Shown: positions 3,797 to 64,000 of the stretch, piece by piece
Layout: each line of letters begins with the position of its first letter
Numbering within the stretch: position 1 is the stretch's first letter
Source of the DNA: Dudresnaya verticillata
Taxonomy: Eukaryota
Assembly: GCA_977862235.1 (NCBI GenBank)
Contig: OZ374559.1
Coordinates: 2,666,001-2,730,000, forward strand
Length of the DNA: 64,000 nucleotides
Direction of reading: 5' to 3'
The notes under the pieces: generated by a model
The model's database searches: none
Seen by the model: the letters and a program-made list of their open reading frames with translations, nothing else
Told to the model about the DNA's origin: nothing
Program-made: the position numbers and the translations under genes

Positions 3797-3854
3797 GCTT
3801 TCCGTAGTTCTTTTTCATGAATGATTAACGTCCTACTTCTCTCCCAAGTTAGAA

Positions 3855-8361: not shown

Positions 8362-9945
8362 TTACGAAGTAAGAGACCGTAACCAGGTCACAACGAGCTC
8401 AAAATGAGATTGTAACTTGAAGCCTTTGTACATGAGGCCGCCAAGCGGTTCTTTGGATGTACCGAGCCGAACAGCAACACGGAACGGCCAGAGAGCGGAG
8501 TGGCTAACAACTGGGCTCAACGCATTTGTATATGACGAAGCAACGATTCCGTTGACTACGATATCACCATGCATGGAATGCGGAGCAAATAGCCCATGGC
8601 CATCTTTCTCAACAATGGACACAACCTGGGACGGGCCGTCAATCGTGCGCAGGATATCCCCGATAATAACATCCCCAGCAACTTTCAGTTGATCGTTCGC
8701 ATACAGATAGTGCCCATGGGTTAGGGAGATGGCTCGGCCCGACTTTGTTGAGATCTCCAGAAATGAAGTTGCGACTGCCTCTACCTTGTGCGAGAAGAAA
8801 TATATCGTACTTTGGGTAGTTTCGGAAGCCATGACCTCTTGCCCAGCAGACAGCTGGCTGATGGGTAGCTCTGATCCATCACTCAAATGAACCACAGACG
8901 AGCCTGAGAAACATTTCGCTTCAGATTTTCCTGTGATTACGCTGGGGGCAACTGCTGTCCTAGAGACGGTTGGAGAAGGAGAAGGAGAGGCGCTGGGTAG
9001 CACTGGACTGATGTATACTAGAGATGGCCATGGGGTTGGATTGCTCACAGCGCTAGCTTTCGGGCTTGGTGTAGGAAACGGTGAAATGCTCGCCCTTGAT
9101 GTCAGACTTGGGTTCGGCTGATTCATGCTTAATTCAGGACCAGGACCTCCCAAGGGCTTGGTCTGAACTGAAGTTGGGCGTTTCTCTGGGCGTGCTTGCG
9201 AGGAAGAGCGGATTTCTTTAGGGCATCTGGCCAGCTGTTTCTTGTTGGCAGGTTCGCGATCGCTAAGGTCGGAGAATATCATGCGGTCAATCGGCTGAAT
9301 GTAGCCATTAGTCCCCTTCGGGAACTTCTTACCTGGATTAATCAGCTTTGCGGGTCTCATTTTGGCCTCAATACTGTTCGGGTCCCAGTAAGAGACGATC
9401 AACTTCCGACCTTGGACAGCAAGATCGGTCATGAACGCCCATGTATTGACTTGCTCCATGTTAAGCATCTCATCGTAGGAGAAGATTCCATCTCCAATAA
9501 GCTGGTATGTGAGAAGGACGAACACCGTATACTGCCCCCTGGTCCTATCCTTGTAGCCACACGCGAACCTCTGTAATGTTTGGTTGACCTGCGCTTTGGT
9601 CTCCGGCTTGGGCCACTTCATTGCCTCGGCAAGGTCTTGAACTGATCGGAAAATGGCCTTGTCGTTAGGCGCGAGGAGAGTCGTCGGAACATTGGGCTTC
9701 TTCAAGAACTTGGCTGCATCGGTTTCCTCGAGAAAGTTCACGAGCAAATCAAACTCGGGAGAAGAGGCGAGAATCTCATAAATGCTCTTCCTCGGCTCAG
9801 ACATTCTTGTTCGGTGGTGGATCGAGAGCTGCTTCCTGCCGATGCCCCCAACACCAGGAGCACCAGTGACAAGCAGAGGGATCAGAATCATGATCAGTAT
9901 CGCAGTCATCGGGCAGCTAGCCTCAGAAGAGCTGGTAGTCATCAT
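8362..9945 (-). CDS. Secreted fasciclin (FAS1) + Pro/Ser linker + Hedgehog-type Hint (Hog) protein
   Basis: Hydrophobic leader MTAILIMILIPLLVTG (ATG at 9909 or 9945). FAS1 motifs TLLAPNDKAI and NGYIQPIDRMI. The Hint starts at CFSGSSVV (Cys codon 8913-8911) and includes LTHGHYLY and GLFAPHSMHGDIVVNGIVASSY. Confidence 0.85.
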   Translation of the reverse strand: MMTTSSSEASCPMTAILIMILIPLLVTGAPGVGGIGRKQLSIHHRTRMSEPRKSIYEILASSPEFDLLVNFLEETDAAKFLKKPNVPTTLLAPNDKAIFRSVQDLAEAMKWPKPETKAQVNQTLQRFACGYKDRTRGQYTVFVLLTYQLIGDGIFSYDEMLNMEQVNTWAFMTDLAVQGRKLIVSYWDPNSIEAKMRPAKLINPGKKFPKGTNGYIQPIDRMIFSDLSDREPANKKQLARCPKEIRSSSQARPEKRPTSVQTKPLGGPGPELSMNQPNPSLTSRASISPFPTPSPKASAVSNPTPWPSLVYISPVLPSASPSPSPTVSRTAVAPSVITGKSEAKCFSGSSVVHLSDGSELPISQLSAGQEVMASETTQSTIYFFSHKVEAVATSFLEISTKSGRAISLTHGHYLYANDQLKVAGDVIIGDILRTIDGPSQVVSIVEKDGHGLFAPHSMHGDIVVNGIVASSYTNALSPVVSHSALWPFRVAVRLGTSKEPLGGLMYKGFKLQSHFELVVTWLRSLTS

Positions 9946-11038
9946 GAGTTTGGAAGGCCTTGGTATCTTCTTAAGACTTAACCTCCTCTCAGTCCAAGAG
10001 ATCGCACGGGGCTGGCGCAATTGATGGCCAGCGTCGGTACGCGGGTTCGGCTCGGGCGTCTTCGCTGCGTTCCGTGATGACCTACTGCACAAGGAAGCTT
10101 GAAGAAATTCGCACTGACTGTCTGGAATCAGTAGGGGGGAATTGTTGGGCAAGTTGAACCGCAAGTGCGCAGGGTTGGATAGGCCAGTCCTGTCTTTCTG
10201 TCTGTCTTTCTGTCTACCGAGACCACCTTCGAGACCCAAAGGAACCTTAATAGAGTAGGGGTATCATCAAGGAGCAGAAAGCCAGGTTTGACCCGACCAA
10301 TTCTCTAGCTTCAGCTAAAAAGTCCTTTTTGTCGAAGTGATACAGATATTTCGACGTGTACACTTGTACAAGCAAGCTTTATCTGAAAATCAAGCTTTTC
10401 AGGGCCCTAAGTATGCCACGTACAACAGCACTGACAACAACGACAGAAACGACAGCATGTGGGACCATCCTGCGCTTCGGAGATCGAGAAGGGCGTTTCT
10501 TCAATACGTCTCAAAATCGGTCCGCATTATGCCTATTCGTGCTGAAGCTAGAGTTACCTGTCTTGCCCTCAGTCCTTCCTTGTAGTCCCGTCCCCTTATG
10601 GGCCCCCCTTTACGCATTGGTTAAAGTGATGCTTCCCCCTGTCTTGATAAAGTAAATGAATCATTTCGATAAAGTATGGAAAAATGTTACAAAAAGTTGG
10701 GCCTTTTCGAGGCGAGTAACTCCAAAGATGCTGAGTTGAGAAATGTTTCCATAAGCGATGCGATTCTGATCCTTTGAATGAGCTAGTCTTGTGACCTTTA
10801 AAATTATCTGCAAGCTTACTGAACACTAATGTACCCAAACCTCTTACTTATTAGTACCCATTTGAATCATGGCCAAGTCCATAAGCTCTTGTTTGCTGAC
10901 AATGCTGCCCGCTTGTGCTGCGTCACCTGTACATAAGATTGCTTACGCGATGCAGTTGTGCTGCACAATGAAGTGGCCATTACCTTGCTTGGGAACCTGG
11001 CTCAGAAGGAGAAGATTACCAAGCTATCCCTAACCTGA

Positions 11039-14000
11039 GCACGAACGCTAACACGCGCGCCCTTTTGCGCGAGCTCGTGCGCAAATTGCGCGATCTCGCG
11101 CCCTACGCTGCGAAGAGGCCTTCATCTCGCAGCAAGGCCACCTGTAGCACCCTCTGGAGGTGTCCCGAACAGACTGACGACGGACGACAGGCTTGCGTCC
11201 CGGTTAGGAGGTCTGTGCCCCGAGGGAACCTACTGTAGAGGACCTTTACAGGTACCTTACCCAGCGCTGTAACCATGATTGGTCAGCAGCACCCCGACAT
11301 GCCGAAGGTATGGCTCTCTCCATGCTTTATGCCTTCGGCAAAACACCGCCCGACAAACAGTACCAGCTGTCCTCTGGGCTGCCAGTCGTCCTCACTGCCT
11401 ACTGTAGAAGCGCTACTCATGCACCTGCGGAAGATGCATGTTCCTGGCAGGCGAGGACCACCGACGAGGACCGACATCGAGCCTCTCAAGCAGCAGCTCC
11501 TGGACTATGGAGTATGGTACTGTGTGACTCACAACAAGTACATGCCTACCCACTGTAGCTCCCGCATGAACAGTGAAGGCATGTACAGTATGCGGTACAA
11601 GAATTGCAGCGCATGTCCCGCCACTCGCACTCCGGCGTTCTCCCACGTCCCGTCCAACCAATTGACGACACCGAGCCGTGAAGAAACTGTAGCCGCGCCA
11701 TCACAGACTCCTGCTCTGGACGCGGTCACGGAGACGCAACCCGAGGACGGCGAGCCGGCGGACGATATCCTGCCAGCCCCGCGACGAATCCCGGACAGCC
11801 AGGAGCCGCCTCCTGCACCGGTACCAGCTACTCAAGTGGTACCAACTGCGCAAACCCGACACGCTGCGCGGGGCCCAGGAGGGCAGCTTCTGCCGGCGGT
11901 CGAAGATATCTGTCGCTCGCATATCCCTATGGTCACACATATACCGTCTCGCGTCCGCGCAGAGGTGCGCGACGCACTGTCCAAGACGGTATGGGCTTTT
12001 ACGAACGCAAACAACTCTCAGGAAGCCACCAAAGAGCTCACTGCATTCCTGCTTTTTCCAGCAGCCGTATTGTCCAATCCTCCCGCGGCGAGTGCAAGGG
12101 CCGGCGCGTCAACCTCTGCGTCCTCGATCGGCACCTTCCGCGATCGAATCCGCCGCTGGGGACTCAAGGATTACGACGCCCTATGGCAGGAGGCCTTGAA
12201 GGGCTCGACATTCCGTGAGCAGACTGCGCCTTCCGCAGAAGAGCAACGCCGTATCAACGCCTCACGAGCCCTTCGCCTCGCAAAGGAGGGCGCCTACAGT
12301 AAGGCAGCAGCAGCTCTAGACTCTGATGGAATCGCGCCAGCCACAGACTCTGTGATACAGTCCATGAAGGACAAGCACCCACAGTCCGTACCGCAAACCG
12401 ACGCGGACCACGAGCTTGACCAGTCCGAACCGCTGCCGACCATGCCTGACTTCGTGCCCTTCACAGCCGACGAAGTACGAAAAGCAGTGGCCAAGTTCCC
12501 CCGGGCTTCGGCCTCGGGGGGCACAGGACTATCACCGACCCATCTGCAGGAACTGCTCTCAGTCCCGACCACTCACGAGCACACGGGCCTGCTTGGCGGG
12601 CTCACCAAAATGGTCAACGTGCTGGCCAGCGGCGCAGGACCTGCGGAGCTGTCGCCTTGGATTGCCAGCGCTCCTCTCACGGCTCTGAAGAAGCGCACCG
12701 GCGGTGTCCGCCCCATTGCTGTAGGAGAGACAATCCGACGACTCGTGAGCTCTATGCTCATGACCAGAGTCGCTCCCACGGCCAAGGCATACCTCGAACC
12801 GCTTCAGCTCGGGGTCGCAACCTCGGGCGGCACAGAAGCGATTGTACACGCGGTCCGGAAGCTGCAGAAGTCTCACGGCCATGACAAGTCCTACGGGTTG
12901 CTACAAGTGGACTTGAAGAATGCCTTCAACCTTGTCAGCCGCAAAGCATTCATGAAGGAGGTCCGTCGACATATGCCTGAACTACTACCGTGGGTCAGAT
13001 ACTGTTATGACTCTGAGGACCCGCACCTGTGGATGGGTGACACTCTACTGCGGAGTGTCACTGGTGTACAGCAAGGTGACCCGCTCGGGCCGTTACTGTT
13101 TGCTTTGGTGCTGCAGGCACTGATCAAACAGTTGAAGGAACTCACCGCCGACCTGCGGCGCTCGGGCCGCAATCAGCAAGCGGAGGGGGCGAACAACTTG
13201 CTGCTGTCACTGTTCTACCTGGACGACGGCGTCATCGTGGCGAAACACGCCGTACTCAGGAAGGTTTTGTCCTTCTTTGACTCCGAGGAAGCTAAGGGCT
13301 ATGGCTTCCACCTGCGCATGGACAAGTGTACTGTTTGGTGGCCTACTGCACCCGACCCAGAAGACTGCGCTGCCTACCCGTCGGATCTTGGGCAGAGCTA
13401 CGGAGAAGGCACTACAGTACTTCAGGCTCCGATTGGAACGCAGAACTACATGGAGGAGAGCGTGAATGGCCATGTCGAGTCCATCCAGCCCCTGCTGGAC
13501 GCAATTTCGGGACTAGAAGACCTACACGTGGCCATCACTCTACTCCGCAACTGTGCCGGAGTCTGCCGGCTGAACTACCTGCTGCGAGTAGTTCCATCAT
13601 CCGCCACGGCGAAGGGCGCCGAGCTCTTCGACCAGAAGATTGAGGCTTGCATGCGCAAGCTCGTGGGAGGAGTCCTACCGAGGGACACCTTCCGCGAACT
13701 TCAGCTTCCCCTGCGCACGAAAGAGCCCAGCTTCGGAATCGGTATTTCGGGAGCTGGCGACATGAACTCGAGCGCGTTTTTGGCGTCCCTTTCACTGACC
13801 CGCAACTTACTGCGTTCTATCTTACCCGCTTCTGTGAACACTGCTCTTTCTGACGATCCTTTTGCAGTAGAAGCGCACGAAGACTGGAGCGCCAAGTGCC
13901 GTAGTGAGGATGCCCTGGACCTGGAGAAGATCGACAGCGACGAGTGCCCGCGCCAGCGGGACTTGACGCGGTTGGTTCTGAAGAAAGTGCAAGCCGAGCT

Positions 14001-14864
14001 GCCGCTCGGGGACAGGCGGACGCAAGCTTTCCGAGCTTCCCTTGGCGTGCCGGGCGCCAAGGACTGGCTCAAGTGCCAGCCGGCACCAGGCATGAAGACG
14101 TACATTGCGGATCGGGACTACCGCGTATGGCTTCGATTCTACTGTCGGATTCCACTGCTGGAACCCGACACGGAGTGTCCTCGGGCCGGGTGCAAGAAGA
14201 AGATGGATGTTCACGGCGACCATCTGCTGATTTGTCCGAACGGCATGCGGAACAGCGGATCTCCTCGGTCGTGGCGCCACGACTCTCAGGTTCGTCTGCT
14301 GGCTTCGGATCTGAAACGTGCGACACGCACCCCGATTGTGGAGCCCCGCCCTGTGGGGGCTCACTTGGATCGGCCGGACATCAAGGCGCTTGGAACAGAA
14401 GGAGGAACGGACTACCTGGACGTCACAATCAGTCATCCACTGTCGTCAGAACAACGCATTCTCAGCTGCATAACAAACCCGCAAGGGACGCTGAAGAACG
14501 CCCACGCTGACAAGGTGAGGACTTACCGTGGCTTCATCCAGGCTGCCGGACCGGGGGCAAGGCTTGTGCCGGTGCCGATGACCACACTAGGTGGCTGGCA
14601 CCCGGAGGCGCACAAGTATATGCAAGAGTTGGCGGATACCGTGGCTTCTCGGGCCATGGTAACTCGCGGTGTTTCGCGAGCGGCTCTGTTCCACAGGCAC
14701 GCGGCGCGACTGGTGCAGAACAACGTCAAGTGCCTGATGGAAGGGATCCAACAGGAGGTGTAGATGTGCAAGTTGTCTTGAGTTGGGGTTTAACTTTGTT
14801 GTGATACTACAGTAGATTGTACGTCGACAAATATTAGAATATGATCACCTGTTATAAAGTTGAA
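11039..14864 (+). mobile_element. Apparently full-length single-ORF CRE-like (RLE) non-LTR retrotransposon
   Basis: Intact 1162-aa ORF. Candidate 9-bp TSD CTAACCTGA at 11030-11038 and 14865-14873. Ends in ATAAAGTTG like other local 3' ends. Confidence 0.8.
11275..14763 (+). CDS. Zn finger - reverse transcriptase - Zn knuckle - restriction-like endonuclease polyprotein
   Basis: CPLGC..HLRKMH C2H2 finger; VRPIAVGE, QLGV, VDLKNAFN, GVQQGDPLGP, YLDD; CPRAGC..HLLIC; RHD, RPDI..YLDVT (PD-D/ExK type). Confidence 0.92.
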   Translation: MIGQQHPDMPKVWLSPCFMPSAKHRPTNSTSCPLGCQSSSLPTVEALLMHLRKMHVPGRRGPPTRTDIEPLKQQLLDYGVWYCVTHNKYMPTHCSSRMNSEGMYSMRYKNCSACPATRTPAFSHVPSNQLTTPSREETVAAPSQTPALDAVTETQPEDGEPADDILPAPRRIPDSQEPPPAPVPATQVVPTAQTRHAARGPGGQLLPAVEDICRSHIPMVTHIPSRVRAEVRDALSKTVWAFTNANNSQEATKELTAFLLFPAAVLSNPPAASARAGASTSASSIGTFRDRIRRWGLKDYDALWQEALKGSTFREQTAPSAEEQRRINASRALRLAKEGAYSKAAAALDSDGIAPATDSVIQSMKDKHPQSVPQTDADHELDQSEPLPTMPDFVPFTADEVRKAVAKFPRASASGGTGLSPTHLQELLSVPTTHEHTGLLGGLTKMVNVLASGAGPAELSPWIASAPLTALKKRTGGVRPIAVGETIRRLVSSMLMTRVAPTAKAYLEPLQLGVATSGGTEAIVHAVRKLQKSHGHDKSYGLLQVDLKNAFNLVSRKAFMKEVRRHMPELLPWVRYCYDSEDPHLWMGDTLLRSVTGVQQGDPLGPLLFALVLQALIKQLKELTADLRRSGRNQQAEGANNLLLSLFYLDDGVIVAKHAVLRKVLSFFDSEEAKGYGFHLRMDKCTVWWPTAPDPEDCAAYPSDLGQSYGEGTTVLQAPIGTQNYMEESVNGHVESIQPLLDAISGLEDLHVAITLLRNCAGVCRLNYLLRVVPSSATAKGAELFDQKIEACMRKLVGGVLPRDTFRELQLPLRTKEPSFGIGISGAGDMNSSAFLASLSLTRNLLRSILPASVNTALSDDPFAVEAHEDWSAKCRSEDALDLEKIDSDECPRQRDLTRLVLKKVQAELPLGDRRTQAFRASLGVPGAKDWLKCQPAPGMKTYIADRDYRVWLRFYCRIPLLEPDTECPRAGCKKKMDVHGDHLLICPNGMRNSGSPRSWRHDSQVRLLASDLKRATRTPIVEPRPVGAHLDRPDIKALGTEGGTDYLDVTISHPLSSEQRILSCITNPQGTLKNAHADKVRTYRGFIQAAGPGARLVPVPMTTLGGWHPEAHKYMQELADTVASRAMVTRGVSRAALFHRHAARLVQNNVKCLMEGIQQEV

Positions 14865-16788: not shown

Positions 16789-16900
16789 GGCCCCTTCCCA
16801 GGGCCGGTCCATCGATTGATAAATAAATAAAGGTGTGTGTGTGTGTGTTAATTTTGAGAGACCTTTATTAAAGAACAAGAGAGAAGCCCCTTAAGGGTGC

Positions 16901-19900
16901 TTAGGATTCAGAGCTACCATAAAGAGGCGGAGGAGCAAGCTTGCGGCGGTTGACACTCACCGCGACGCATTGGAGAACTAAAGAGAGTAAACGAGTAGTG
17001 AGGCGAAGTTTCTTCGTAGACGGAGAGGTCCCGCGCTTGCTGGCAATGAAATTAGCAATACGTTGGGCGCCAACTTCAAAGCCAGATCCAACACGGCCAT
17101 AGACATCTACAACCATAGGATGGAGAACCATATCCAAACTAGCGCATACGCGGCGGTAATGAGAGCGTTTGACACGTTCGCGAGCTGCAATGGCTTGGCC
17201 AGCAACGCGACCAGTGGGACCATGAATAGAATGGGGACTGACGACCGAGACATCAAATCCATGGGGGTGAGGGGCAAAGCCACGATCATCAACGAAAATA
17301 TCCATACGCAGTTGGTCACGTGGATCAACAGGCTGTGGGGGACCACCAGAAGCAGCATGACGCTCGTCACGTATGCGCTCAGCACGTGTTCGGGCAGCGT
17401 TGGGGACAGAGCTACGGGGCCCATGCTCATCCGAATAAGTGAAACGATGCTCAACTTCAACGCGCACGCCATGGGGGCGGGCGATAGTCTGAAATAAGAC
17501 GCTAAAGCGATCCCGAAGATGATCATGACGGCGAATCGTGCCCTCACGAGAAGAGCAGACCGTAGCATGATGCCCATAAACATCAAGAAGAGGGGGAACA
17601 GAAGCGGTACCATCAACACAACGGGGGCATGGGTCATCTCCACTGAAGATGGGAAGTCCAAGTCGTAGCTGGATCATTGATATCCAAACTTCAGGTTCGA
17701 CCCGAGTACCGTGGAAGGAGGAAGGTACAGCGGCAAATGCGCGCGCAGAACTGGCCGTGCAGGTAGATTGCAGACGAAGACGACAGCGAAGATCATCACT
17801 AGAGTTGGATGACGGGGTCACAGAGGCCAAAACCACGGCATTAATAGAAGAAAAAAGCCCATGATGCACAGACCCGGGAGACCTGGAGTCATGAGGAGTA
17901 GCATGGAAAGAATTCAAGAACGTGGTTACATCATTAAGTCGGGCTTGACAATTGTTGCCAACAGAAGAGCGGAGACGGCCTAGGGAAGGCCCAAGGGTGT
18001 TGTCAGCAGGGAAGGGAAAAGGACCAAGAACTGTCCGGATGGTAGACATGCTTGAACCGAGAGACGCTAAATAGCTGAGATCCACCACAGCAGAAGCTCT
18101 AGTCAGTCCTAGGCCACCAGATCGCAGCGGTAGAGAACTGAGCTTCCAAATCGAATCGGTTAAGAGACAATGAGTTGCTTCAAACACCCGTCGCATTCCA
18201 AGGTCGTGGGACACGGCAATGGAAGAGGTTAAGTGCGGAGGGGTAGTTCGAAGCAGGTAGGATAGTTTTGATACACCAGCACAGAAGCGTAGAAGGTGAA
18301 AGACAAGTTGAGGGTCACCGAGAGAAAGTAAACGATCCCAGAGTAGAGCCACGGGCTGTAGTTTCTTCGTCAAGATAGCCTTACAGGCATTGTCAGCCCC
18401 AATAGGGGAACCTAGAACCTCAATGGCAGCATTTCGGTTAACATCGCATGGTAAATTACGAAGAGGGGAAGAGCGTAGGCGAGGCAGAAGAGGCCACCAC
18501 GCGTCAGACTTATGGGAACCAAGCTGCACATGAAAACCATAAGAAGAACCTCGATCGGAGAGAAAATGTAGGACTTCTGCAGCAGACGAAATGGGAAGCA
18601 CGATATACAAATCGTCGGCATAAGCCGTAATAAGCTTAATGCTGCTAAATCTGGAGGCAACAGCACAAAGAAGCGGTTGTAGAGCAATACAAAAAAGAAG
18701 CATGCTCAACGGGTCACCCTGCTGGGTACCGGTATGGCTGAACAGGGTGAACTCTCCGAACAGAAGTCTAGGTGATGCAGTATAGAGGTAATGAACCATC
18801 TTAGAAATTCCTGGAACATGGGAAATAACTTCCCGTAAGAAATGAGCTCGCTCAATGCTATTATAGGCATTCTTAGCATCGATGCGAAGCAAAACGAGGG
18901 ATTCAGTACGATGAGATGCAATAAAGGCTCGTAGGGAATGAATGATGGCCTCGGCTCCATTTGGGGTACCAACAGCGAGTTGAAAAGGACGTAGATACGA
19001 TATCACAGCAGGATCCTTGGATGCACGTTGAGCAAGAAGACGGCATACAAAACGCCGAACAATGCAACCCATAGCTATGGGACGTAGGGATCCTGGTTTT
19101 GACTTTGGAATACCAATCAGGAGGGCGCTAGCAAGCCACGGGCTGAACGAAGATGGGAGACGGCCAGCAGCGCATTTGTTCACAAAGGCAGTGAGAGCAG
19201 TTAAGGCAGAGCGACTTGGCTCCGTACCGCCAGGTGGGTGAGCAAGAAGTCTTAGAAGACTGGGACGAAGGCCATCTAGGCCTGGGGAGGAATGATACGG
19301 GAGAAACCGCAAGGCCCGGCGAATATCAGACTCAGGGAAGTCGTATGCAGGAGGTAGGGAAGAATAGAAATGTGGAAGAACCGCTTCAACAGGGGCTGGA
19401 TGAAGCGCCTCCATGGCAGGGCGGGTAGACGAATTTGGGAGTACCGGAGGTGTTGTAGAGCAGAGTGCAGCAGCTGCTTTGCTAAGAGCTCCATCAAAGC
19501 ATAGTTGACGGCAGCGCCGGGACGGATCCGAAGGAATGTGAAGTGAGGCTGTGGGAAGAGATGGGAAAGCAGAAGTGGCAGATTCCCATAGATCATGCCA
19601 CCGACCTAGAAGAGCTAGATGAATGCGTGCGCGCAACATTCGAGTGAGCGTGCGACGATGCGAATTTCGCGGTTGGCCCCCCCGTTCTTACGAACAACAA
19701 GCTTTACTACCGCCAAAAAGCGAGAAAGACTTTCCTCAAGAGCGCTTGGCGTATGAGCAGATACAAAAGACGAGAAAATGAAATAGGATGTTGTCCCAGT
19801 CTGCCCGAAGCGTATTTGGCAGAAACGTAATTGTGGGGATCGGTAAAGGGAAGAGGAGTTGTGGTCGAGGACAAGGGTCGAACTGAAGTGGTGCATTTGA

Positions 19901-19903
19901 CAT
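16901..19903 (-). CDS. ORF2: RT - Zn knuckle - RLE; two compensating frameshifts near 19770 and 19680 in this copy
   Basis: LRPIAMG, QLAVG, IDAKNAYN, GTQQGDPLS, YADD, CPRC..HATVC, RHD, RMDI..FDVS. The upstream segments IPTITFLPNTLRADW and SFVSAHTPSALEESLSRFL align with the 1162-aa element. Confidence 0.85.
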
Positions 19904-21111
19904 TATGCGTTGGGAATCATTGCTACGTCTGTCGATTGTTGTCCTAGATCAATTGATGCGGGTAACGCATCCGGGGAAGGCGAGGATTCATCAGAAGCAT
20001 TTCGAGGGAGAACACGGACGAAACAGTCGGCATCAGGAGAAGATAGGCGACGATATACCCTGCGTCGCTTCGCACCAATATTCGGGTAGTCTGCAGGGGG
20101 TTGAGGCAACGGATGGGTATCATGACCCCACTGAGAAAGACTTTCTTGAAGCAAAGCATGAGTGGAGCGGAGAGCAGCCGAAAAATACGGTGCGGGGCCC
20201 CACTTACTAGCCGAGGTCTCCAGGGGCGTAATCTCATTTTGCAACGGAAGGAAAACAGAGTTAACTGCATCGACAGTATTTAAGGAGGTGTGAAGGTCGG
20301 TGATTGCAGAGAATTCCAACGTCGGTACTATAGAGTTGTCAGCATGTTTCGCCAGATCCGTGAATGCCTTATATGCTGGCTGTAGTGATTCACGATCACG
20401 AGCTGCAGCGACGACATAAAAAACGGCAGGGTCCGTAGTGCGAAGGATGGAGCAGGGGCCAGGAAATCCACCTTGATGTATAGCTCGGCGGAATTCAGCT
20501 GGATGTTCAATGATATCGGTCTCTTGCGCAGTCGAAACGCGGACAACACGTTTTTCATTTCCCCCGAATAGACGACGATTAGTACGACGAACATTTCCCG
20601 CGAACTTATGCGTAAGAGCCGCGTGAGGTGGGATACACTGTAGATCGAGCCCGTTCCGACCGAGGAGGGGCAAGCGCCCTACGGGCGTAGGCTTCTGAGT
20701 CGCCCGAACAGCATTAAGATACGATTTTGAAGCAGAACTTCCGGGTTCAGAGTCAGGAACCGGTGCAGAACGCGGCAGACAGGCTTCAACAGGGGTGGAC
20801 GGAGGGACTGCACTTGACACAGCCGGTCCAGCAGTAGAAGCAGGGACAGGTCCAGAGAGGTTTAGAAAGACACGAAGAAGAGATTTAAAATGCAGATTGT
20901 GTTGAAATGTCGAGATAAGAGCCTTAACGCGCGGTAGTTCAGAGATCTGGAGAAGGAAGGTGTCTACGGCATTTTTATTTCCGAGATCGACCACGGGATC
21001 CAATAAAGAGGCGGATAGTGCAATAAAATCGACGGTGGCATGCGTGAGAGAGACGAAAGCTTCTTGTTGGACATTTTGGAGCGAACGACGAGTATGATTG
21101 GCTGAAGGCAT
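19903..21111 (-). CDS. ORF1 of the two-ORF element (402 aa from MPSANH); no domain recognised
   Basis: The first ATG inside the element in this frame is at 21111. The ORF is also open in the second copy (ATG 63403). The stop TAA overlaps the ORF2 ATG. Confidence 0.75.
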   Translation of the reverse strand: MPSANHTRRSLQNVQQEAFVSLTHATVDFIALSASLLDPVVDLGNKNAVDTFLLQISELPRVKALISTFQHNLHFKSLLRVFLNLSGPVPASTAGPAVSSAVPPSTPVEACLPRSAPVPDSEPGSSASKSYLNAVRATQKPTPVGRLPLLGRNGLDLQCIPPHAALTHKFAGNVRRTNRRLFGGNEKRVVRVSTAQETDIIEHPAEFRRAIHQGGFPGPCSILRTTDPAVFYVVAAARDRESLQPAYKAFTDLAKHADNSIVPTLEFSAITDLHTSLNTVDAVNSVFLPLQNEITPLETSASKWGPAPYFSAALRSTHALLQESLSQWGHDTHPLPQPPADYPNIGAKRRRVYRRLSSPDADCFVRVLPRNASDESSPSPDALPASIDLGQQSTDVAMIPNA

Positions 21112-24100
21112 GACGAACAAGATGACACGACAGGGGGTAAACGACAGTGGCAAGAACAACGAGTGGAAACAAACAGGATCAAGGGGAAAACGAGAGACGG
21201 AAACACCACGAAAGGCGAAGAAACCCCTCGCGAGCTGCCGGCGCAAATACGGCAGAGCCGCAGTTGCAGAGCTCCGCACAGTCACGCTAGAAGGAGGGGA
21301 AGAAGTAGAGACAAACAGCGAGGAAAACAAGCCTGGGGTTCCCAAAGGAGCAGAAAACGCCAGTAAGCAGAGGACTCTAATCCGGAGAAGAGCCTTGTTT
21401 CGCTTTTTGACGTTAATTTTGACACCGAGATATCTGGCAGTCGCTCGCAGCCAGTTCCATGCGTTGTCCCGCAATTCTTAAAACTGTCGAGCTTGGGCCT
21501 TCGCGATGTCTGCTGAGCAGGAGGATACAGCATTTCCCTACTGACCAAGTCATTCATTCCGATAGAAGCGGCCCGTTCTTCATAGACGGCGAGGGCCTTT
21601 CGCAAGGCGGCGGCCGATCAGCACACTTTGTGAGACATTCGTCGATCACGTTTCATCCGCCGCTCGAGTTTGGGCTGTAGAACATGGCGTGAGCAGGGGT
21701 GGAAACCTTCAAGCCAGTCGACAAACACCATGCTGAGATTGCTTTTTCTCTCTAGTTGCGGGTAGAGAACCAGGCGGGATTGCGTGCGTTCAAGTCTCCC
21801 GCAAGGAATTTCTTGCCGTGCGTGAGTGGTTTTAAATCATGCAGTTCCGCAGGCATCTCAACTGGGTTTGCTCGAGGGCTAATGTGTGTACCCATAATGT
21901 CTCCAAAGACTGAGATGTTCACGCATACAAGCCGGTACAGTGAATGTTGGACCGGGAGTTGTGGTTTGCTTTGTGTGTACCGTAGAGTAGCTCAAAGCTA
22001 GGGGCCGGCGACGATGGCCACGCCGCCAAGCGCCTTGTTCCTTGTTACTGCACGGGAGGCGGGGAGGAGGTCGCCAAGTCAAGCCAAGGGCCCCTTGTTC
22101 TTGCACGGGAGGCAGGGAGGGGGAATGTCGGGTGTGGAACCTGCCACACTCCCGAAGCCGTCGCTTGCATATAGCGTAGTATGCCGGTATGTTTCCCGGT
22201 TAAAATGCGTAGGTCGGGGTTGGCTGTGGTGGGGAGTTCCATGAAGTCAGGTGGAGTGAAGTGGAGTTTAATCCTGACATTCCAGGTGCCTACCAGCGTT
22301 AGGTTTCCATACTGTCATTTTTGGAAGATGCTTAGGGTATTGGTGTGCTTTCTTCTCCGAGGGCGATTCTGCGTGTCGTTCAACACTGTGGGGCGTGGAG
22401 TGGGGCGCAGTGTTGGAGTCCAGTATTTTCTGCAACACATACCCGTTTGGTTCCATCGGGTCCATCAGCTTCCAGTGCCTAGCTGAACGTTGCGGTGGGT
22501 TTCCAATGCAGTGCATTGGTTGACTGGGCGGCTGGAGTGACGATGTAGAAAGTGCACGGTCTCGCCCGTCTCGGTCGATTTCCTGTACGTACTTACATGC
22601 GTTCTGGCAGGCAGCAGCGAGTAAACGAGGTAGCGATTGGTACACATTCGCGGTGCGGGTGGGGAGTGAGCATAGTAATATCGGACCTGCGGTGAACAGC
22701 AGCAATTTTCGTCCTCGCGGCCCGAACTGCTTGGTGGGCCTACTTGTCTAGTTTAAGACCAGTGGTCGGCGTTATCCTGATCTCCAGTACGGTGGGGCGG
22801 TCGGTAGGCAGTATTGTAGTGTTGAAGGGCAGTGGGGCTTGTTGGGATGTCTGAATAGAGCACGTAGATTTCGCAGTCGTAACGCTGGCATGTATTCAGT
22901 GGGCTGACCGATGACGCGGTGGGAAACCTTGAGTTCAATGAGTCCATTTGAGCTACTAGATGTTGCATAGGCAGGGTTACCACCAACGTGCTTACTCGGC
23001 GACAGGGCTGAGAAATGTTCTGCAGATATGTTGACCAGTACTTGGAGCCATGCGGGAGGAAATGTGAAGCGCACCGGCGAAGTCGCGGAGGGTTTGTTCG
23101 GCTTTCTTCACGCGTACTACAGTTTCGGTTTTGCCGGTCCCACCCGGTGATAATTCCACTCTGAGTTATTTTCTTTCGCAGCGGTTTCCATGCGTTGTCG
23201 CGCCATTCGAAGAACCCAGCATATTGGTAGTACTCAATGTCTTGTTTGGAGAAGGGCTAAGCAGTTCCTTACTAACCAAGTCATTCCACTGGAAGCCGTC
23301 CATGGGCTGCAGATGGTGAGGGCCTTCCGCAAATCTTCTGTCTAGTCGACTTGTAGTAGGCAGCCATAGGCCAGCAGGTCCTGGGGATTGTGCTACAAAC
23401 TTCTCAGTAAGTTTGAGAGTCTGGAAGGGAAAGGAACGACCTAATCGATGCGAAAGTCGGGGTGGGAGTGGGAGCGAGCTACTTCTTGTAGTAATGCGGG
23501 ATCTCTTCGACAGTTTTTCTTTCACAGAACCGCTTCCTTTAACGTTACCAGTCGGGTATTGCCGCAGAATTTAAGCTCTGCCGAGAGTCGCAGTAATGGT
23601 ATCAGCGCGGGTTGAGGTGCTGGGACCCCCAGCGTGATTGCCCTCAGAAAAAGGGAGCGGAACGCCAGGCTTGCGACTCATGTCGAACCTTGGCAATTGA
23701 GGCAAAATTGGACGACGACAAGCGCGGTCCTGCCCGTACGGAAAAAAGGGTGTGATGCGGAACGAAGGGGTGCTGGGAGGCAGGATAGACGTCGGGTTGA
23801 GGGGGTATTGACCGGCCCAAACCAGTTTGAGTTTGGAAACTGGGTATGCAGAGAAGACAATAATTTCTTATTGCTTCACCCATGCCCAATGAATGGACGA
23901 CCGTTGCCAGTTGTTCAACAACAGATGTACAACAGATGTAGTCCCTGAGAGCTCCAGGTCTTGAAATGGGCGTGGGGCATCCGCGGTAGATTCAGCTTGG
24001 GACCAGTACTATAGGCATAACGCAGTGGAAGTCGGTTTAGTAGCTGGAGGATTGGCTGCTGAAGTCTTAGGGGCCTCGACAAGGCTGGAAGCGCACGGTA

Positions 24101-24879
24101 TATCGCCACATCCCGATGTGTGATTCTTGTCCGACCCGAATCCATTGTCGCGAGTTGCGTTCTTCGATAGGAGCGTAGGATTTCGATTCGCAAGTTGGAG
24201 TGAGGGTTGGCCTGATGATGTTCATTCGATCTGCCAGTCGGAGGGGGGCTTAACTTACTCTCGGCCTTGTCATGTTTGGCCTCGAAGATGGGGCGCCTGG
24301 GGTAGGGTACTTGCCGTCTTCTACATACGGCGGGGCATTTGGTGATGGAGGTACGGCCGGTGGACGCAGGGTTTTTTGGAAGAAAAACTTCGATGATGCT
24401 GCAGTGACTACAAGTGCAACGTCGAAGATTGCGTTCGGCTGTCAAAGCCCATTTCTCGACCAGTCGCAGATCCGAGCTGTAAGCATACGAACATTCTGTT
24501 TTTGTGACAAATTTCTGAGCCAAGTTTAACCAACGCGCCTTTTCCGATCTCCCGCCGCCGCCATCGACAAACCGAAACAGACGAATTCCCGCCACCGAAC
24601 ATCAAACCCGTCGGCTGCGTTGGCGAAGACCCTGTTCCCGCCTACGCCCCTCGCCCCATACAGTATAAACATTCGATCCGCCGCCCTCCCCTTCTCAAGC
24701 GCTCCACCCACGCCATCACTAGCGCCAACGCAACCGCCAACACCACCTCTACCCTTCGACGAAAGCCCACCCCACCATTCCCCCTCCGACCAACCCTTCC
24801 ACACTCCCCCAAACAAGCCATCTCCATGCATACTTGGCACTCGATCAACTCTGTCCCAGCCGCCCCCTCATCGACTGCA

Positions 24880-27472
24880 ATGAACCCGTCCGCAAATCAA
24901 CAGCAGCTGCGTATCTACACTGGCGCCAGCTTCCCGCCAGCCAGTCCTGCGATGCCAGAAGTTAACCCCGCACCGATGCCTTTGACGCAGCCTGCTCCAA
25001 TGCATAATGCACTTGCATTTCCCGCTCATCATGCTCACCACGCTCCGACCATGTTCATGTCGCCGTTCCACGGCGTCCCGCAAGCAATGCCGACTTCTTC
25101 TGCGCCGATTTTGACTCCGGCTCGGCAGCAAGCACCACAGCAAGCACCGCAGCAGTGGGCAACCGCCACAGCCTTCGCTTCAAGCTCTCAGTGGAAGCAG
25201 GCCGCAACCCCCGGTGCAACGACTGGGTCTTATCACGGACTCGTGCCGACGTCCGATCCCATGCAGGCGCAAGCCGGTTATGCCCATCCGTCAGCGTCAG
25301 CTGATTTCGGGGCTCCGACTTCCTGGAACATCTATTCTGGTTATGCTTACGCGAATGACGCAACTATTCTCCCTGTGCATGCTGCAGAGCACTATCAGAC
25401 AGATGCTTTTCCCGAGTGTTATCGCAGTGCCAATTCGGGTGAAGCGGCAACACCCTACAGTGTCTATGTCCCCATGCATCAGAACTATCAGAACTACAGC
25501 CTAAACGGCTTTGAAGGAAATGGCTACGGCACCGGAGAGGCCATGGTGGCATACGGTCCTGATCACTTCCAAGCCCAACAGGTCCCGCCCGTTTCTCAGC
25601 CGCTGGATGCCGTGACTGAGCCCATTGGCGCTACTTCAACATGTTCTAACCCCGGTTCAGGAGCTCACGTGTCAACGAACCAGGAGCCCTACCACGGTCT
25701 TCAAGTTCCCAAGGTGGACTTCTTCGGTAATGTCGCTGGTCAAGAGGGCAACTTCAACTGCAGAGGAGATGCAGACACAGGAACTTGCCGGTCTGCTGGC
25801 ATCTTCGAAGATAAGAGTGTGAGAGTAAGTCAGCAGAGTATGGCAACTTCACATGTGGCATTGGATACAAGCAAAGGAGATGTGAATGTTGACCCCAAAA
25901 ATATTTTGGAGCCAGTGCATCGAACCGCTGATATCCGTGGCAAGACTTCCGTTTCTGTGTCGGACAAGGGGATTGCAGACCACCATCAGCCGAGAGGTTT
26001 TGCTTCTGCAAAAAGGCAGCAGAAGAACCAGGCTCATACGAAACAATTAATGATGCCGGGAGCCTTGCAATTCGGGAACTTCATTGTAGAGAAGGTTCCT
26101 GGGTCCAGACCCTTCCGACGTGGGCGCTTTGATTCACCCACCTCACCTCTCTTGTACTTCAATCTGTCGCGGTGGCTGTTAACTGCCGTTTACTCTTCGA
26201 CCGTCGCCTTTCAGATGAGTTTTAGATAAGCCCCCTTACGGGGCTGTAGTCTTTCCTATGCATAAAGGTCTCCATCTTTTTCTTGATTTTTCAGCCTTCA
26301 AGGTTCATGGGCTTGGTAACAAAGAAACAGATTTGCGCACATCGCCTCTACGGAGCGCGAGCGCTTTCATATCTAACACAAGCACAGCCAGGAAGAGGGC
26401 TGGTAAGAAAAAGGTTAGAAAGGGAAAGCAGGGAATGAATTCTTTCTCTGCCGACGCAACTGCACCAGTCACTCACAAGAACAAGTCTCATATGCTTCCA
26501 GTCTCAGAGAAGAAAGAACGCGTTCAAGTTCCCTCTTCCGGTCAGAACTCTTCAAGACGTATCCAATCTACCTCGAGGCCTCCATCTGTACAGTCGGCAA
26601 AGGAGGCGAAGAGTTCATCTCCAGTTCATCTTAGGAAGCAGAACCTGAGAGTAGAAAGTGGCATCGATGCGGTTGAGCAATCCGCTCAACTTCCAGGAGA
26701 ATCTTGGGCTACGGTTGCCATGAAATTTCCTTCGGGTAACTTCAGTCAGTCTGTATCGAATACTGCTGCTGCGAAGGGTGGTAGAGACAAGGATATACCG
26801 AAGCTAGACACAATTTCGCCTAGAGTGGCCCGAGTTCCGGGAAAGAGAGAGCATCAGAAACACGGCACTGTTCCAGACTCCGGAGCGTCTGGTCAAATGA
26901 GCCGCTCGGAAATCGTGAGTGAAATGCTGGCGAGTCTCGACATGACTTCTAACATCATCCGCCAGAGCGCCAGAACACTTCCAAGTAGCACGGCTACTGC
27001 TTCGAATCCCGAGAAACATTCTGCACACAGCAATATTTCTGCCTCGTCGCAGAACGAAGTTCCGATTTCGCTGCAAGGAAAAGAAGAAACCAAGAGGGTC
27101 TCGGAAGTGGATCGAGCATATGTAGGGAAGAAGGGCAGTGACTATCGTATAAGCGACACGAAGAAAGGAAGTAATTTCTTGGCTTCAGATATGACTTCGA
27201 AGCTCTCCAAGGGTACTGGAAAAGTGGTCGCTCCTACCAAAAAGACCGCTGTAGCCGCGGACGAGAAGAACTGTAATGCGGGAGGGGGCCTGCCCTTGGG
27301 TAGAGAACCTCAGAATGACGGAGTTAACTCCACCGTTAGTACCCCCACGCCTGCTGCCGAAGATGGATCCCGCCTTGCGGAGAAGGACGCGCTTGCGCGG
27401 ACTGATGGGGATGGTTTCACTATTGTCCGACGAAAGAGGAAGCCAATGAGGAAGAGACATCTTAAAGCCTAA
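24880..27472 (+). pseudogene. Low-complexity protein copy B, interrupted by a retro-insertion
   Basis: ORFs 24826..26229 and 26258..27472 join into one 813-codon frame once 154 bp (insert plus one TSD) are removed. Copy A has the empty site (RGRFDFSAF). Confidence 0.7.
26135..26282 (+). mobile_element. 5'-truncated CRE-like insertion with 6-bp TSD
   Basis: TTGATT at 26129-26134 and 26283-26288. Encodes LTSLVLQSVAVAVN (compare LLSLVLQCVAVSVN). Ends GCCCCCTTACGGGGCT...ATAAAGGTCTCCATCT. Confidence 0.85.
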
Positions 27473-28386
27473 TTTTCACTTGGGAGAGAAGTAGAACTTT
27501 AATCATTCGTGAAAGAAGGCCTGGGATATGCCCTCAAGAAGAGGACAAATCGAGGCCACGACAGTGAATGTTCATGAGAGAGAGGGGTACTTTATTCGTC
27601 AGAGCGAGAGATATAGCGGTAATGTGGAGAACCTGTGAACCGAGCTTGGTGAAGAGGACATCGCGTTCCATTACTAGCGAGGTGCCCCGGCGAGCAAAAA
27701 TAAAGTCTGTAACATCCCGCCGACTAGCCTCGAAACCGGGACCGAGGGTTCCGTAATTGTCCGCTGCAAGGGGGTGGAAGTCGGCACCTAACGCGAGGCA
27801 AGCGCAGTTGACTTTGCAACGATTGCACCGTTCAGCAACCTGAAGAGCATGTCGGGGAACGCCCGGTATTGCAAACAGAATGGGGGCTGACGATCGTGAC
27901 GTCAAACATCTGGGGATGCGGAGAGAGGAAGGGGTGAGACGTAGAGGTCTAATAGCCGCTGCCGCTGTAAGCCCTGGTGGAAAGGGAACTCTCGAGGGGA
28001 TCGCGAAAGCCGTTATGGCGCGTCGTACTGACTTGTGACATTACCACTGTCCAATAGCTGCCATTAGGGCCCGGGGATGGCGCAAGCGACAATAGGTAGG
28101 GAATGTGTGAAAAGCTGGAAGGCTCGGAGAGGGGAGGACCGAGGGAGACTTGGAGACGAATCCCGGGCGTCGTGAGAAAACCAGCACTGTGTGCCCCCAC
28201 GACAACTTGCCGTCTTTGTGATTTGCCCGGTGTTGCAGTTGCGGAAGGTCCGGTTTATCCCGTGGTAAATTTAAGTTCATCGCCAACGTAGATATTGTTA
28301 AACTTTACTCAACTTGGGTTTGAGTGTGTCGAATTCGGAAGCTGGTAGAGCGTCGGATACCACTGCCAATATTATCTTAAGGAAGG

Positions 28387-29577: not shown

Positions 29578-29835
29578 TGCAGTCGATAAGGGCGTAGTGG
29601 GGACCGCGTTGACCGAGCGCTGAGTCAGCGGGTAGATTGGTTGTTTGGGGAGTGGGTAGGTGTTGGTTGGAGGGAGAATTGAGGGGGTGGGCTTGCGCTG
29701 CAGGTGGCGTTGGGAGTTCGGTTGGCGCTAGTGAAGGTGTGGGTGGAGCGGTTGACGAGGAGCGGGTGTTCGGTGCGAACGGTTATATGGAGTGGGAGCG
29801 AGGGGCTTAGGCGGGAACACGGTCGTCTCCAATGA

Positions 29836-33192: not shown

Positions 33193-33594
33193 AATGAAAA
33201 CATTAATTGTCCTACGGTCGTATGCATACTGATTCAATCATTCTACAGTCGTATGCATACTGATGAAATGGATCTACAGTCGTATTAATACTGCAGATAC
33301 TATTCTACGGTCGTATTCATGCTGACGAACCATGTTTCTGTTTTATGTAGTTGTATTCACAATGGTTCTCAGTGAGCACTTTCTTCTAACTTTATTCAAC
33401 GGTCGTTTTACGTTTTAGAGGCAGTCTTCGCCTGCCTATAAGTACCGCCTAGTTCTCTCTTGTTCTACCCTCTCAACAGGACAACATTTTATCTAGACAA
33501 CACAATCTGATCTACTCTGTTCTGTAAATCTACTGTTCCTCTGATACCGCTGCTACTGCCAACTTGCTACTGAGCCAAATACCATTCCTTTATT
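33193..33594 (+). repeat. 5' LTR (AAT...ATT)
   Basis: Direct repeat of 38065-38466; three substitutions seen by eye. Confidence 0.95.
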
Positions 33595-33607
33595 GTTATG
33601 GGCCCAG
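33595..33607 (+). promoter_or_regulatory. Primer-binding site, half-tRNAiMet (Hemivirus) type
   Basis: GTTATGGGCCCAG directly follows the LTR and matches the Drosophila copia-type PBS. Confidence 0.8.
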
Positions 33608-42475: not shown

Positions 42476-42688
42476 AGAGAGAGAGGAGACCTTTATTAAA
42501 GAACAAGAGAGAAGCCCCTTAAGGGGGCTTAGGATTCAGAGCTACCATAAAGAGGCGGAGGAGCAAGCTTGCGGCGGTTGACACTCACCGCGACGCATTG
42601 GAGAACTAAAGAGAGTAAACGAGTAGTGAGGCGAAGTTTCTCCGTAGACGGAGAGGTCCCGCGCTTGCTGGCAATGAAATTAGCAATA
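42476..42688 (-). mobile_element. 5'-truncated copy (3' ~200 bp) of the two-ORF element with (TC)n tail
   Basis: Near-identical to 16856-17060. Confidence 0.9.
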
Positions 42689-52958: not shown

Positions 52959-53163
52959 CATAATTCATTGCCAGCAAGCGCGGGACCTCTCCGTCTACGG
53001 AGAAACTTCGCCTCACTACTCGTTTACTCTCTTTAGTTCTCCAATGCGTGGCGGTGAGTGTCAACCGCCGCAAGCTTGCTCCTCCGCCTCTTTATGGTAG
53101 CTCTGAATCCTAAGCCCCCTTAAGGGGCTTCTCTCTTGTTGTTTAATAAAGGTCTCTCTCTCT
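52959..53163 (+). mobile_element. 5'-truncated copy (3' ~200 bp) of the two-ORF element with (TC)n tail and 8-bp TSD
   Basis: Near-identical to the reverse complement of 16856-17055. CTCATAAG at 52951-52958 and 53164-53171. Confidence 0.9.
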
Positions 53164-63153: not shown

Positions 63154-64000
63154 GCGTTTTCTGCTCCTTTGGGAACCCCAGGCTTGTTTTCCTCGCTGTT
63201 TGTCTCTACTTCTTCCCCTCCTTCTAGCGCGACTGTGCGGAGCTCTGCAACTGCGGCTCTGCCGTATTTGCGCCGGCAGCTCGCGGGGGGTTTCTTCGCC
63301 TTTCGTGGTGTTTCTGTCTCTCGTTTTCCCCTTGACCCCGCTTGTTTCCACTCGTTGTTCTTGCCACTGTCGTTTACCCTCTGTCGTGTCATCTTGTTCG
63401 TCATGCCTTCAGCCAATCATACTCGTCGTTCGCTCCAAAATGTCCAACAAGAAGCTTTCGTCTCTCTCACGCATGCCACCGTCGATTTTATTGCACTATC
63501 CGCCTCTTTATTGGATCCCGTGGTCGATCTCGGAAATGAAAATGCCTTAGACACCTTCCTTCTCCAGATCTCTGAACTACCTCGCGTTAAGGCTCTTATC
63601 TCGACATTTCAACACAATCTGCACTTTAAATCTCTTCTTCATGTCTTTCTAAACCTCTCTGGACCTGTCCCTGCTTCTACTACTGGTCCGGCTGTGTCAA
63701 GTGCGGTCCCTCCGTCCACCCCTGTTGAAGCCTGTGTGCCGCGTTCTGCACCGGTTCCTGACTCTGAACCCGGACGTTCTGCTTCAAAATCATATCTTAA
63801 TGCTGTTCGGGCGACTCAGAAGCCTACGCCCGTAGGGCGCTTGCCCCTCCTCGGTCGGAACGGGCTCGATCTACAGTGTATCCCACCTCACGCGGCTCTT
63901 ACGCATAAGTTCGCGGGAAATGTTCGTCGTACTAATCGTCGTCTATTCGGGGGAAATGAAAAACGTGTTGTCCGCGTTTCGACTGCGCAAGAGACCGATA
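63154..64000 (+). mobile_element. 5' end and ORF1 start (ATG 63403) of a second copy of the two-ORF element; runs off the window
   Basis: Near-identical to the reverse complement of about 20515-21360. Confidence 0.9.

Follow-up and report, generated by a model that had tools for sequence, protein, structure and literature searches.

A two-gene, CRE-like retrotransposon of Dudresnaya verticillata with a TAATG overlap and probable coupled translation

Non-LTR retrotransposons are divided, in the parts of the reviews available to us, into single-ORF elements with a restriction-like endonuclease (RLE) guided by zinc fingers and two-ORF elements with an APE endonuclease (PMC5678591; PMC2881922), the textbook RLE plan being one ORF with N-terminal zinc fingers (PMC5678591). 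In a 64,000-nucleotide stretch of Dudresnaya verticillata DNA (hereafter, the window), an RLE element appears on the minus strand with two ORFs that meet at a TAATG, raising the question of whether this is the plan of a lineage or the accident of one damaged copy. We consider it quite likely that the locus is a two-gene RLE (CRE-like) retrotransposon with a TAATG overlap, whose ORF2 would be made by termination on ORF1 and restart.

The initial annotation had confined the element to 19639..21111, which proved to be its 5' third only; the full-length RLE-type non-LTR retrotransposon extends over 16858-21411 (minus strand, 4.55 kb) and has 11-bp target-site duplications on both sides. These lie on the same strand at 21412..21422 (5' copy) and 16847..16857 (3' copy), the 11-mer at 21422-21412 being identical to 16857-16847 and occurring twice in the whole window, with both strands counted. 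The 5' UTR (21112..21411, minus strand, 300 nt) is free of ATG, and the first ATG of the element is that of ORF1, at 21111. The 3' UTR (16858..16900, minus strand) carries AATAAA at 16869-16864 followed by a short (CT)n tail, an end shared by two 5'-truncated copies of the same family, at 42486..42688 (minus strand, 99% identical, identified by sequence match, with no clear target-site duplication seen) and 52964..53163 (plus strand, 98% identical), the latter with 8 bp duplicated on its two sides (52951-52958 and 53164-53171). Together with the duplications, the truncated copies and the (CT)n tail are hallmarks of TPRT. Sister families are represented in the window by fragments at 61500-62940, 6920-8210, 43025-43386 and 27606-27927. 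The flanks of the three 3' junctions within the window are unrelated, denoting dispersed insertion, and Rfam gave no match in the window or in a distant relative (L002, below), so that neither the spliced-leader or telomere site-specificity of trypanosomatid and fungal CRE members nor a known 5' ribozyme was found. The 3' end of L002 likewise has AATAAA followed by TC repeats.

Downstream of the junction, ORF2 (16901..19903, minus strand, about 1000 codons) comprises a short N-terminus, a pre-RT region, a reverse transcriptase (RT), a CCHC knuckle and a restriction-like endonuclease, and is 34% identical end to end to P0001, an intact relative. The RT core (18524..19111, minus strand, with YADD at 18622-18611) matches Pfam RVT_1 with E values of 1.2e-14 to 1.4e-14; among the sequences of solved structures its nearest are R2 proteins (E 1e-7), with L1 ORF2 also among the best. 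The CCHC knuckle, RHD and R-x-D...D...K endonuclease motifs (17168..17629, minus strand) were located against the SLACS/CRE and MoTeR consensus (PMC12857005). Relative to the REL consensus, C-x(1-3)-C-x(7-8)-H-x(3-4)-C-x(9-10)-RHD...R/KPD...D/E (PMC12857005), ORF2 keeps the residues and their order but deviates in its spacers, about 15-16 from C to H and 8 from C to RHD, and has RMD as its motif. A non-LTR RT, a C-terminal CCHC/RHD/PD-(D/E)xK-type endonuclease and the TPRT hallmarks thus place the element in the RLE type, and no APE endonuclease was matched in Pfam, ORF2 beginning 21 aa ahead of the pre-RT motif. As first described, no zinc-finger motif precedes the pre-RT region of ORF2, and ORF1, with 4 Cys and no CxxC pair, has no fingers either; the element and L002 alike therefore depart from the textbook RLE plan, having two ORFs and no fingers.

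The peptide IPTITFLPNTLRADW corresponds to ORF2 aa 22-36 and does fall in the pre-RT region, where P0001 matches the single-ORF element of the window (ORF 11239-14763, first Met 11275) from residue 12 of P0001 onwards. The two indels suspected in this copy were likewise recovered by frame-by-frame alignment to L002 and P0001: over approximately 19779-19681 (19681..19779, minus strand) the homology shifts to the neighbouring frame and then back, and in-frame stops at 19738-19736 (TGA) and 19690-19688 (TAA) cut ORF2 after 55 codons. As read from this alignment, the ORF2 of this copy is broken by two compensating frameshifts.

At the junction itself (19901..19905), the minus strand reads TAATG, the ORF1 stop (TAA, 19905-19903) overlapping an ATG (19903-19901) that opens ORF2 in the -1 frame, the frame read by the RT-RLE ORF at 19687-16901, with the two in-frame stops between. 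Beforehand, the two-ORF reading had been made to depend on TAATG not being limited to this copy, and it is not, since L002 has TAATG at 1368-1372. L002 is a distant full-length relative with unrelated flanking DNA. Its ORF2 shares 37.6% identity with that of the element in an alignment of 1021 columns, and tblastn shows its ORF1 to be a homologue (E 1e-21; 245 columns, 30% identity); its DNA is otherwise unalignable with that of the element, with a single 60-bp blastn match across the whole element and only 4, 6 and 4 identical bases of 20 in three windows upstream of the junction. The persistence of TAATG in such DNA points to more than chance, and the overlap is, judged from both sequences, a genuine feature and no copy-specific accident.

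Further details of L002 agree with this. The frame with homology to the ORF1 C-terminus (shuffle p 0.002 and 0.006) stops at the TAA of TAATG, the other two frames giving p values of 0.46-0.72; homology was taken from this shuffle test, BLASTP of the ORF1 C-termini alone returning a 10-residue match only. From Met to the IP motif there are 21 aa in the element and 30 aa in L002, and the overlap is nonetheless retained. In P0001, the third relative, the start Met stands in the column of ATG 19903; a short N-terminus is also present in 13 of 68 proteins that were matched from the N-terminus yet fall outside the lineage, and is thus not diagnostic alone, so that this start is supporting evidence only. 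Among 30 fetched loci with a match reaching the N-terminal part, TAATG stands at the first Met in L002 alone, TGATG occurs there in three control loci (L033, L043, L056) with no long upstream ORF, and half (15/30) have in-frame extensions of at least 100 aa; the 150-aa filter for upstream ORFs missed the broken ORF1 end of L002 itself. The independent DNA-level junctions are two, both from damaged copies; in L002, ORF1 has one frameshift and ORF2 one or more. The junction is missing from L001, L020, L025, L045 and L052, which are partial or truncated at the 5' end.

Could a single ancestral long ORF, with ORF1 as its N-terminal extension, have been split here by a chance indel that left an accidental TAATG? 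Two other indels lie within 220 bp of the junction in this copy, the ORF2 frame has no stop in the 15 codons before the ATG and most relatives are single long ORFs, all of which would suit such a split; but TAATG recurs in the unalignable DNA of L002, intact P0001 has its Met at the matching column, and no fusion of ORF1 and ORF2, the other finding that would have contradicted the two-ORF reading, was found among 212 fetched proteins, of which the ORF1 profile matched two, both short ORF1 fragments and neither an RT protein. We find a chance split hardly credible. A programmed -1 frameshift, yielding ORF1p and an ORF1-ORF2 fusion, would accord with the -1 frame of ORF2, and junctions of other LINEs have been suggested to use one (Paramecium; PMC5405496, as far as the part available to us goes), but we hold it to be very improbable: in L002 a stop at 1364 closes the ORF2 frame two codons ahead of the ATG, which leaves almost no room for a fusion, no XXXYYYZ heptamer was seen by eye at either junction, no downstream structure was detected, and the overlap retains its AUG, exactly in place, in the element and in L002.

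Independent initiation of ORF2, by internal entry, a sub-element promoter or splicing, with the overlap reflecting compactness only, draws some support from the fact that no known reinitiation element was found. Indeed, windows of 100 nt from -20 to +300 gave structure z scores of -0.75 to +1.06 in the element and -0.75 to +2.15 in L002, scores that small or long-range structure could escape, and UGGGA (the TURBS motif) is absent within 200 nt upstream of both junctions; hence neither the SART1 nor the calicivirus cis element is evident. Nevertheless, an exact 5-nt overlap kept at 38% protein identity, while the lengths of the ORF1 tail and ORF2 head changed, is hard to explain without coupling, and we regard an independent start as improbable. 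Leaky scanning is argued against by 16 out-of-frame ATGs inside ORF1. Coupled termination-reinitiation is, by analogy with SART1 and L1, the likely mode: cap-dependent scanning would start ORF1 at the first AUG of the element, and ribosomes terminating on ORF1 would restart one base back on the ORF2 AUG, presumably giving much ORF1p and little ORF2p.

The product of ORF1 (19903..21111, minus strand, 402 aa from the ATG at 21111) has a homologue in L002 and no match in Pfam. A single-sequence search found nothing among 7995 candidates of 221-704 aa, a two-sequence profile matched 2 of 7999 candidates, which are short pieces belonging to the L002 family, and ORF1 adds a new ORF1 protein family. 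Its N-terminal side consists of a helical region (about aa 15-85), a low-complexity linker and a basic stretch (aa 136-185, 9 K/R against 1 D/E), followed by a predicted beta-alpha-beta-beta-alpha-beta domain, two helices and a disordered tail; no long coiled coil or CCHC knuckles were seen. The domain (aa 185-272; 20296..20559, minus strand) is predicted to be ferredoxin-like, of RRM topology, by two low-confidence AF2 models (mean pLDDT 40.5 and 49.7) whose order of strands and helices agrees. Foldseek gave best E values of 3e-3 and 3e-2 with mostly ferredoxin-like folds in the top rows, and VIA aligned the domain with 6wi5, a designed protein (Z 8.8, rmsd 2.9, 87 aligned).

In this context, we lean slightly towards an RNA-binding or chaperone ORF1p that would package RNA by means of its RRM-topology domain, as APE-LINE ORF1p does, a comparison for which the part available to us of one review on the LINE ORF1 role serves as background (PMC2881922). 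That ORF1p has another job instead, whether it targets DNA in trans, binds a host factor or has an enzyme-derived fold, is a doubtful but still appreciable possibility, in line with fold matches that are only generic ferredoxin-like proteins (ABM monooxygenase, PII, ACT and designed proteins) and with Pfam, PDB sequences and the Atlas giving no weighty match (one PDB match with the ORF1 profile at E 0.79; best Atlas scores of 0.79 and 0.82, leads only). No RRM or LINE ORF1p was named among the matches listed, an absence that rules nothing out. Against another job, the position, size, basic patch ahead of the domain and RRM topology followed by helices resemble LINE ORF1p, as does the first-AUG, high-expression position. 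Like L1/Jockey-type ORF1p, the protein is encoded by the first ORF, has about 400 aa and has a predicted RRM topology between helical regions; on the other hand, no solved ORF1p stands among its listed matches by sequence or by fold.

As to ancestry, the RT motifs of the element are of what we take to be the CRE type, a label given with a tree that holds no named CRE, SLACS, CZAR or MoTeR references. This midpoint-rooted ML tree was built from 30 hand-picked RT cores out of 168 rows, that is, the 171-row set minus P0067, P0107 and P0131 (short RT cores). The lineage forms one branch of six rows (support 99/93), one of them an RT whose name gives the red alga Gracilaria as its source, nested in a 15-row set (98/89) with the finger-bearing long-ORF proteins P0065, P0074 and P0084; in most of the other relatives the N-terminus is long and in frame. 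Viral contigs held no relatives of ORF2 or ORF1, and prokaryote genomes one distant RT fragment. It is fairly probable that the lineage descends from single-ORF, finger-bearing CRE-like ancestors that would have lost their fingers and gained ORF1, in convergence with the L1-type plan and with target choice relaxed. The initial reading of a two-ORF RLE lineage is supported; that ORF1 replaced a DNA-binding N-terminus is inferred from the tree, and ORF1 resembles the RNA-binding LINE ORF1p more than a DNA-targeting module.

More tentatively, a CRE-like lineage, probably of red algae, may have evolved the L1 body plan independently, dropping its fingers, adopting a new RRM-fold ORF1 family and UAAUG reinitiation with no known cis element, and keeping its ancient restriction-like endonuclease. 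If so, the lineage would parallel, in a living form, the transition from RLE to APE, ORF1 having come ahead of the change of endonuclease, and no UAAUG-coupled RLE element would have been recorded before it. Since the lineage mixes RLE and APE plans, ORF1 gain, finger loss and translational coupling appear separable from a change of endonuclease. The junction would offer a natural stop-start site free of known reinitiation signals, and a compact RLE enzyme with no N-terminal DNA-binding domains bears on RLE target choice, a live question in R2-based gene insertion according to the portion available of one report (PMC13708176).

Compared with CRE-clade elements (CRE1/2, SLACS, CZAR; MoTeR1, FoTeR, Cnl1), the element is alike in having an RT followed by CCHC, RHD and R-x-D..D..K motifs and in its target-site duplications, and unlike them in its separate ORF1, lack of fingers, (CT)n tail, unrelated insertion sites and longer CCHC spacer. 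EhLINE1 of Entamoeba histolytica, which we take to belong to the R4 clade and to encode an RNA-binding ORF1p, and SART1 of Bombyx mori, a telomeric APE-type element, are the nearest parallels in plan and junction, respectively. In the part of the source available, the CRE-clade elements of most species encode a single ORF, bear 1-2 zinc fingers, end in a poly-A tail and insert at specific targets, two ORFs being once reported in a T. cruzi element (PMC12278014). EhLINE1, a precedent for two-ORF RLE elements (PMC3118788) that the initial annotation lacked, shares the restriction-like endonuclease, ORF1 plus ORF2 and dispersed insertion, and TAATG coupling does not appear in the portions available of either paper (PMC3118788, PMC1635306); its two-ORF plan likely arose independently. 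Coupling through UAAUG is an established mechanism in SART1 and in viruses, and SART1 shares the overlap of ORF1 stop and ORF2 start (excerpts of PMC5972666 and PMC10275272), but it requires RNA structure downstream, which was not detected here; likewise, TURBS-dependent reinitiation in caliciviruses and influenza B differs in its upstream UGGGA. In the literature covered, outside Repbase and most subscription journals, we found no two-ORF CRE element of red algae, no UAAUG in an RLE element and no RLE element with an ORF1 of the present type.

No RNA sequencing run was listed as sharing the words of the element, and one public DNA sequencing run with 0.05 of them gave three contigs, covering 16859-17049, 17984-18134 and 18229-18379 only. 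Within the window, no same-family copy besides the element itself spans the junction; a second copy (63154..64000, plus strand, 98% identical) holds the 5' UTR and ORF1 codons 1-199, the window edge preceding the junction. It differs from the element at 7 of 249 nt in the 5' UTR (21112-21360) and by 5 synonymous and 6 non-synonymous codon differences in ORF1.

On the minus strand, positions 19905-19901 read TAATG, confirming the junction claimed in the initial annotation: the TAA closes an ORF1 of 402 aa that opens at ATG 21111 (minus strand), and the overlapping ATG (19903) lies in the same frame as the RT-RLE ORF at 19687-16901 (928 codons). This frame is interrupted by two stops (19738-19736 and 19690-19688). 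When window ORF2 was aligned frame by frame against two relatives, homology followed the ATG frame to codon 40, ran for ~33 codons in a neighbouring frame (about 19779-19681), and returned to the ATG frame at codon 76; therefore, window ORF2 has two compensating frameshifts, which bears out the two indels proposed earlier. As it reads, ORF2 of this copy would terminate after 55 codons, and the frameshifts may be mutations or assembly errors.

The 4.55-kb element is flanked by an 11-bp sequence (21422-21412 and 16857-16847) with no third occurrence, and its 300-nt 5' UTR is free of ATG. Its 3' end consists of AATAAA plus a short (CT)n tail and is common to two 5'-truncated copies (42486-42688, and 52964-53163 with an 8-bp duplication); the 3' flanks of these three copies are unrelated to one another. 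A fourth, 98% identical copy (63154-64000) comprises only the UTR and ORF1 codons 1-199; its 5 synonymous and 6 non-synonymous differences are not enough to reveal selection. Together, these boundaries and the fourth copy place ORF1 inside the element. Both target-site duplications (21422-21412/16857-16847 and 52951-52958/53164-53171) start with TC or CTC and run into the (CT)n tail, suggesting that the tail may prime by microhomology at the target.

The metagenome contig scan for relatives yielded 77 loci, including L002, a full-length relative of 4340 bp whose ORF2 is 37.6% identical to window ORF2 over 1021 columns and whose ORF1 is homologous to window ORF1 (E 1e-21). Despite DNA that is unalignable with the window element save for one 60-bp match, L002 carries TAATG (1368-1372) before ORF2, and the motif is thus not unique to the window copy; such uniqueness was what the initial annotation had named as a refutation. 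L002 ORF1 has a frameshift near 1150; the frame ending at the TAA of TAATG aligns with the window ORF1 C-terminus (shuffle p 0.002 and 0.006), and the other two frames do not rise above shuffles (p 0.46-0.72). The ORF2 head before the IP motif measures 30 aa in L002 and 21 aa in the window. Furthermore, P0001, an intact protein of 952 aa, 33-34% identical to window ORF2, begins with a Met that aligns exactly with ATG 19903. An in-frame Met also lies 5 codons before the ORF1 stop in the window (19920-19906) and 3 in L002 (1359-1367), possibly by chance.

As a control, the 30 of 77 loci with a match reaching the N-terminal part were inspected: TAATG stood at the first Met in one (L002) and TGATG in three, where a long upstream ORF was not found, and 15 had an in-frame extension of at least 100 aa. 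TAATG accounts for 4/76 ATGs in the window element and 7/63 in L002. Of 171 proteins, 68 had a match beginning no later than profile position 30; in these, N-termini were long with a finger-like motif in 32, long without it in 21 and short in 15; since 13 of the short ones fall outside the lineage, a short N-terminus alone is weak evidence. The fused ORF1-ORF2 form, named beforehand as evidence against two separate ORFs, was not found among 212 fetched proteins, where the ORF1 profile matched no RT protein and only two ORF1 fragments of the L002 family.

As the best reading of this arrangement, we infer that ribosomes would scan to the first AUG and translate ORF1, terminate at its UAAUG, and reinitiate to translate ORF2. 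Leaky scanning to the ORF2 AUG is disfavoured by the 16 out-of-frame ATGs within window ORF1, and -1 frameshifting from ORF1 into ORF2 by a stop in L002 that closes the ORF2 frame two codons ahead of its ATG. Termination-reinitiation at UAAUG has been shown for SART1 and several viruses (passages of PMC5972666, PMC10275272); however, neither a stable RNA structure in 100-nt windows from -20 to +300 around the junction, a scan that could miss a small or long-range one, nor a UGGGA in the 200 nt upstream was found in the window element or L002, which weakens a straight SART1/calicivirus analogy.

Window ORF2, L002, L001 (another matched locus) and the proteins P0210, P0001 and P0064 ('reverse transcriptase [Gracilaria domingensis]') formed a single branch (FastTree 0.95, 168 rows; IQ-TREE 99/93, 30 rows), and the name of P0064 makes a red alga the probable host. 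The branch falls within a larger supported group that also includes long-ORF proteins bearing fingers. This placement suggests a derived two-ORF state, in a midpoint-rooted tree without a named CRE reference. We take the RT motifs of window ORF2 to be of CRE type. The putative label 'CRE-like' draws on these motifs and on motif order against passages of PMC12857005; as to architecture, the proposed bicistronic CRE-like RLE lineage is supported. The intact single-ORF RLE element with an N-terminal finger-like motif (11275-14763, plus strand) falls on a separate branch; its nearest relative is protein P0159 (64% identity in the RT core). Moreover, 3' fragments of several sister families of the two-ORF lineage occur at 61500-62940 (plus) and at 6920-8210, 43025-43386, 27606-27927 and 50892-51098 (minus), the individual pieces showing 31-75% aa identity with ORF2; the one near 27500 ends in AATAAA and (CT)n, as in the window element. 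A bacterial MAG contig of 2.9 kb carries a distant CRE-like RT fragment (locus L078, 143-1102), likely as eukaryotic contamination.

In the portions consulted, the textbook RLE plan is a single ORF with N-terminal fingers (PMC5678591, PMC4640811, PMC2881922), and trypanosomatid CRE elements, once supposed to have two ORFs, have one in most species (PMC12278014). Two-ORF RLE elements do exist, since the dispersed EhLINE1 has ORF1 and ORF2 (passages of PMC3118788, PMC1635306); excerpts of PMC13708176, PMC5348765 and PMC5405496 served as background only. In the literature searched, neither this two-ORF lineage nor an RLE element with UAAUG was found described; Repbase, outside the search, may have the lineage.

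ORF1 had no match of weight in Pfam, PDB sequences or Atlas. Both AlphaFold models of it (mean pLDDT 40.5 and 49.7) place a beta-alpha-beta-beta-alpha-beta domain at roughly aa 185-272, with helices after it. The matches in fold searches were ferredoxin-like proteins of a generic kind, with a best Foldseek E of 3e-3 and a VIA Z of 8.8 (rmsd 2.9, 87 aligned), and a second VIA run gave mostly helical bundles; the predicted domain is of RRM topology, which is not proof of an RRM. Ahead of it lies a basic stretch (aa 136-185, 9 K/R vs 1 D/E), kept in L002.

Elsewhere in the window, paralogous low-complexity ORFs without a significant Pfam match (3813-5880, minus; 24359-27514, plus; 28390-29832, minus) may represent either an unknown multicopy gene family or a mobile element; 3813-5032 and 26283-27514 share 91% DNA identity over 1232 bp. 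A Copia-type LTR element (33189-38466, plus) has 99% identical 406-bp LTRs and an intact 1488-aa ORF, with a Tudor-like domain ahead of the RT. Host-like genes encode a TIR protein (1059-2384, plus), a Hint-domain protein that weakly matches fasciclin (8362-10263, minus), a LysM protein (39276-40394, minus), a Spondin_N protein (48108-49268, plus) and a GH18 chitinase with CBM5/12 (59544-61133, plus).
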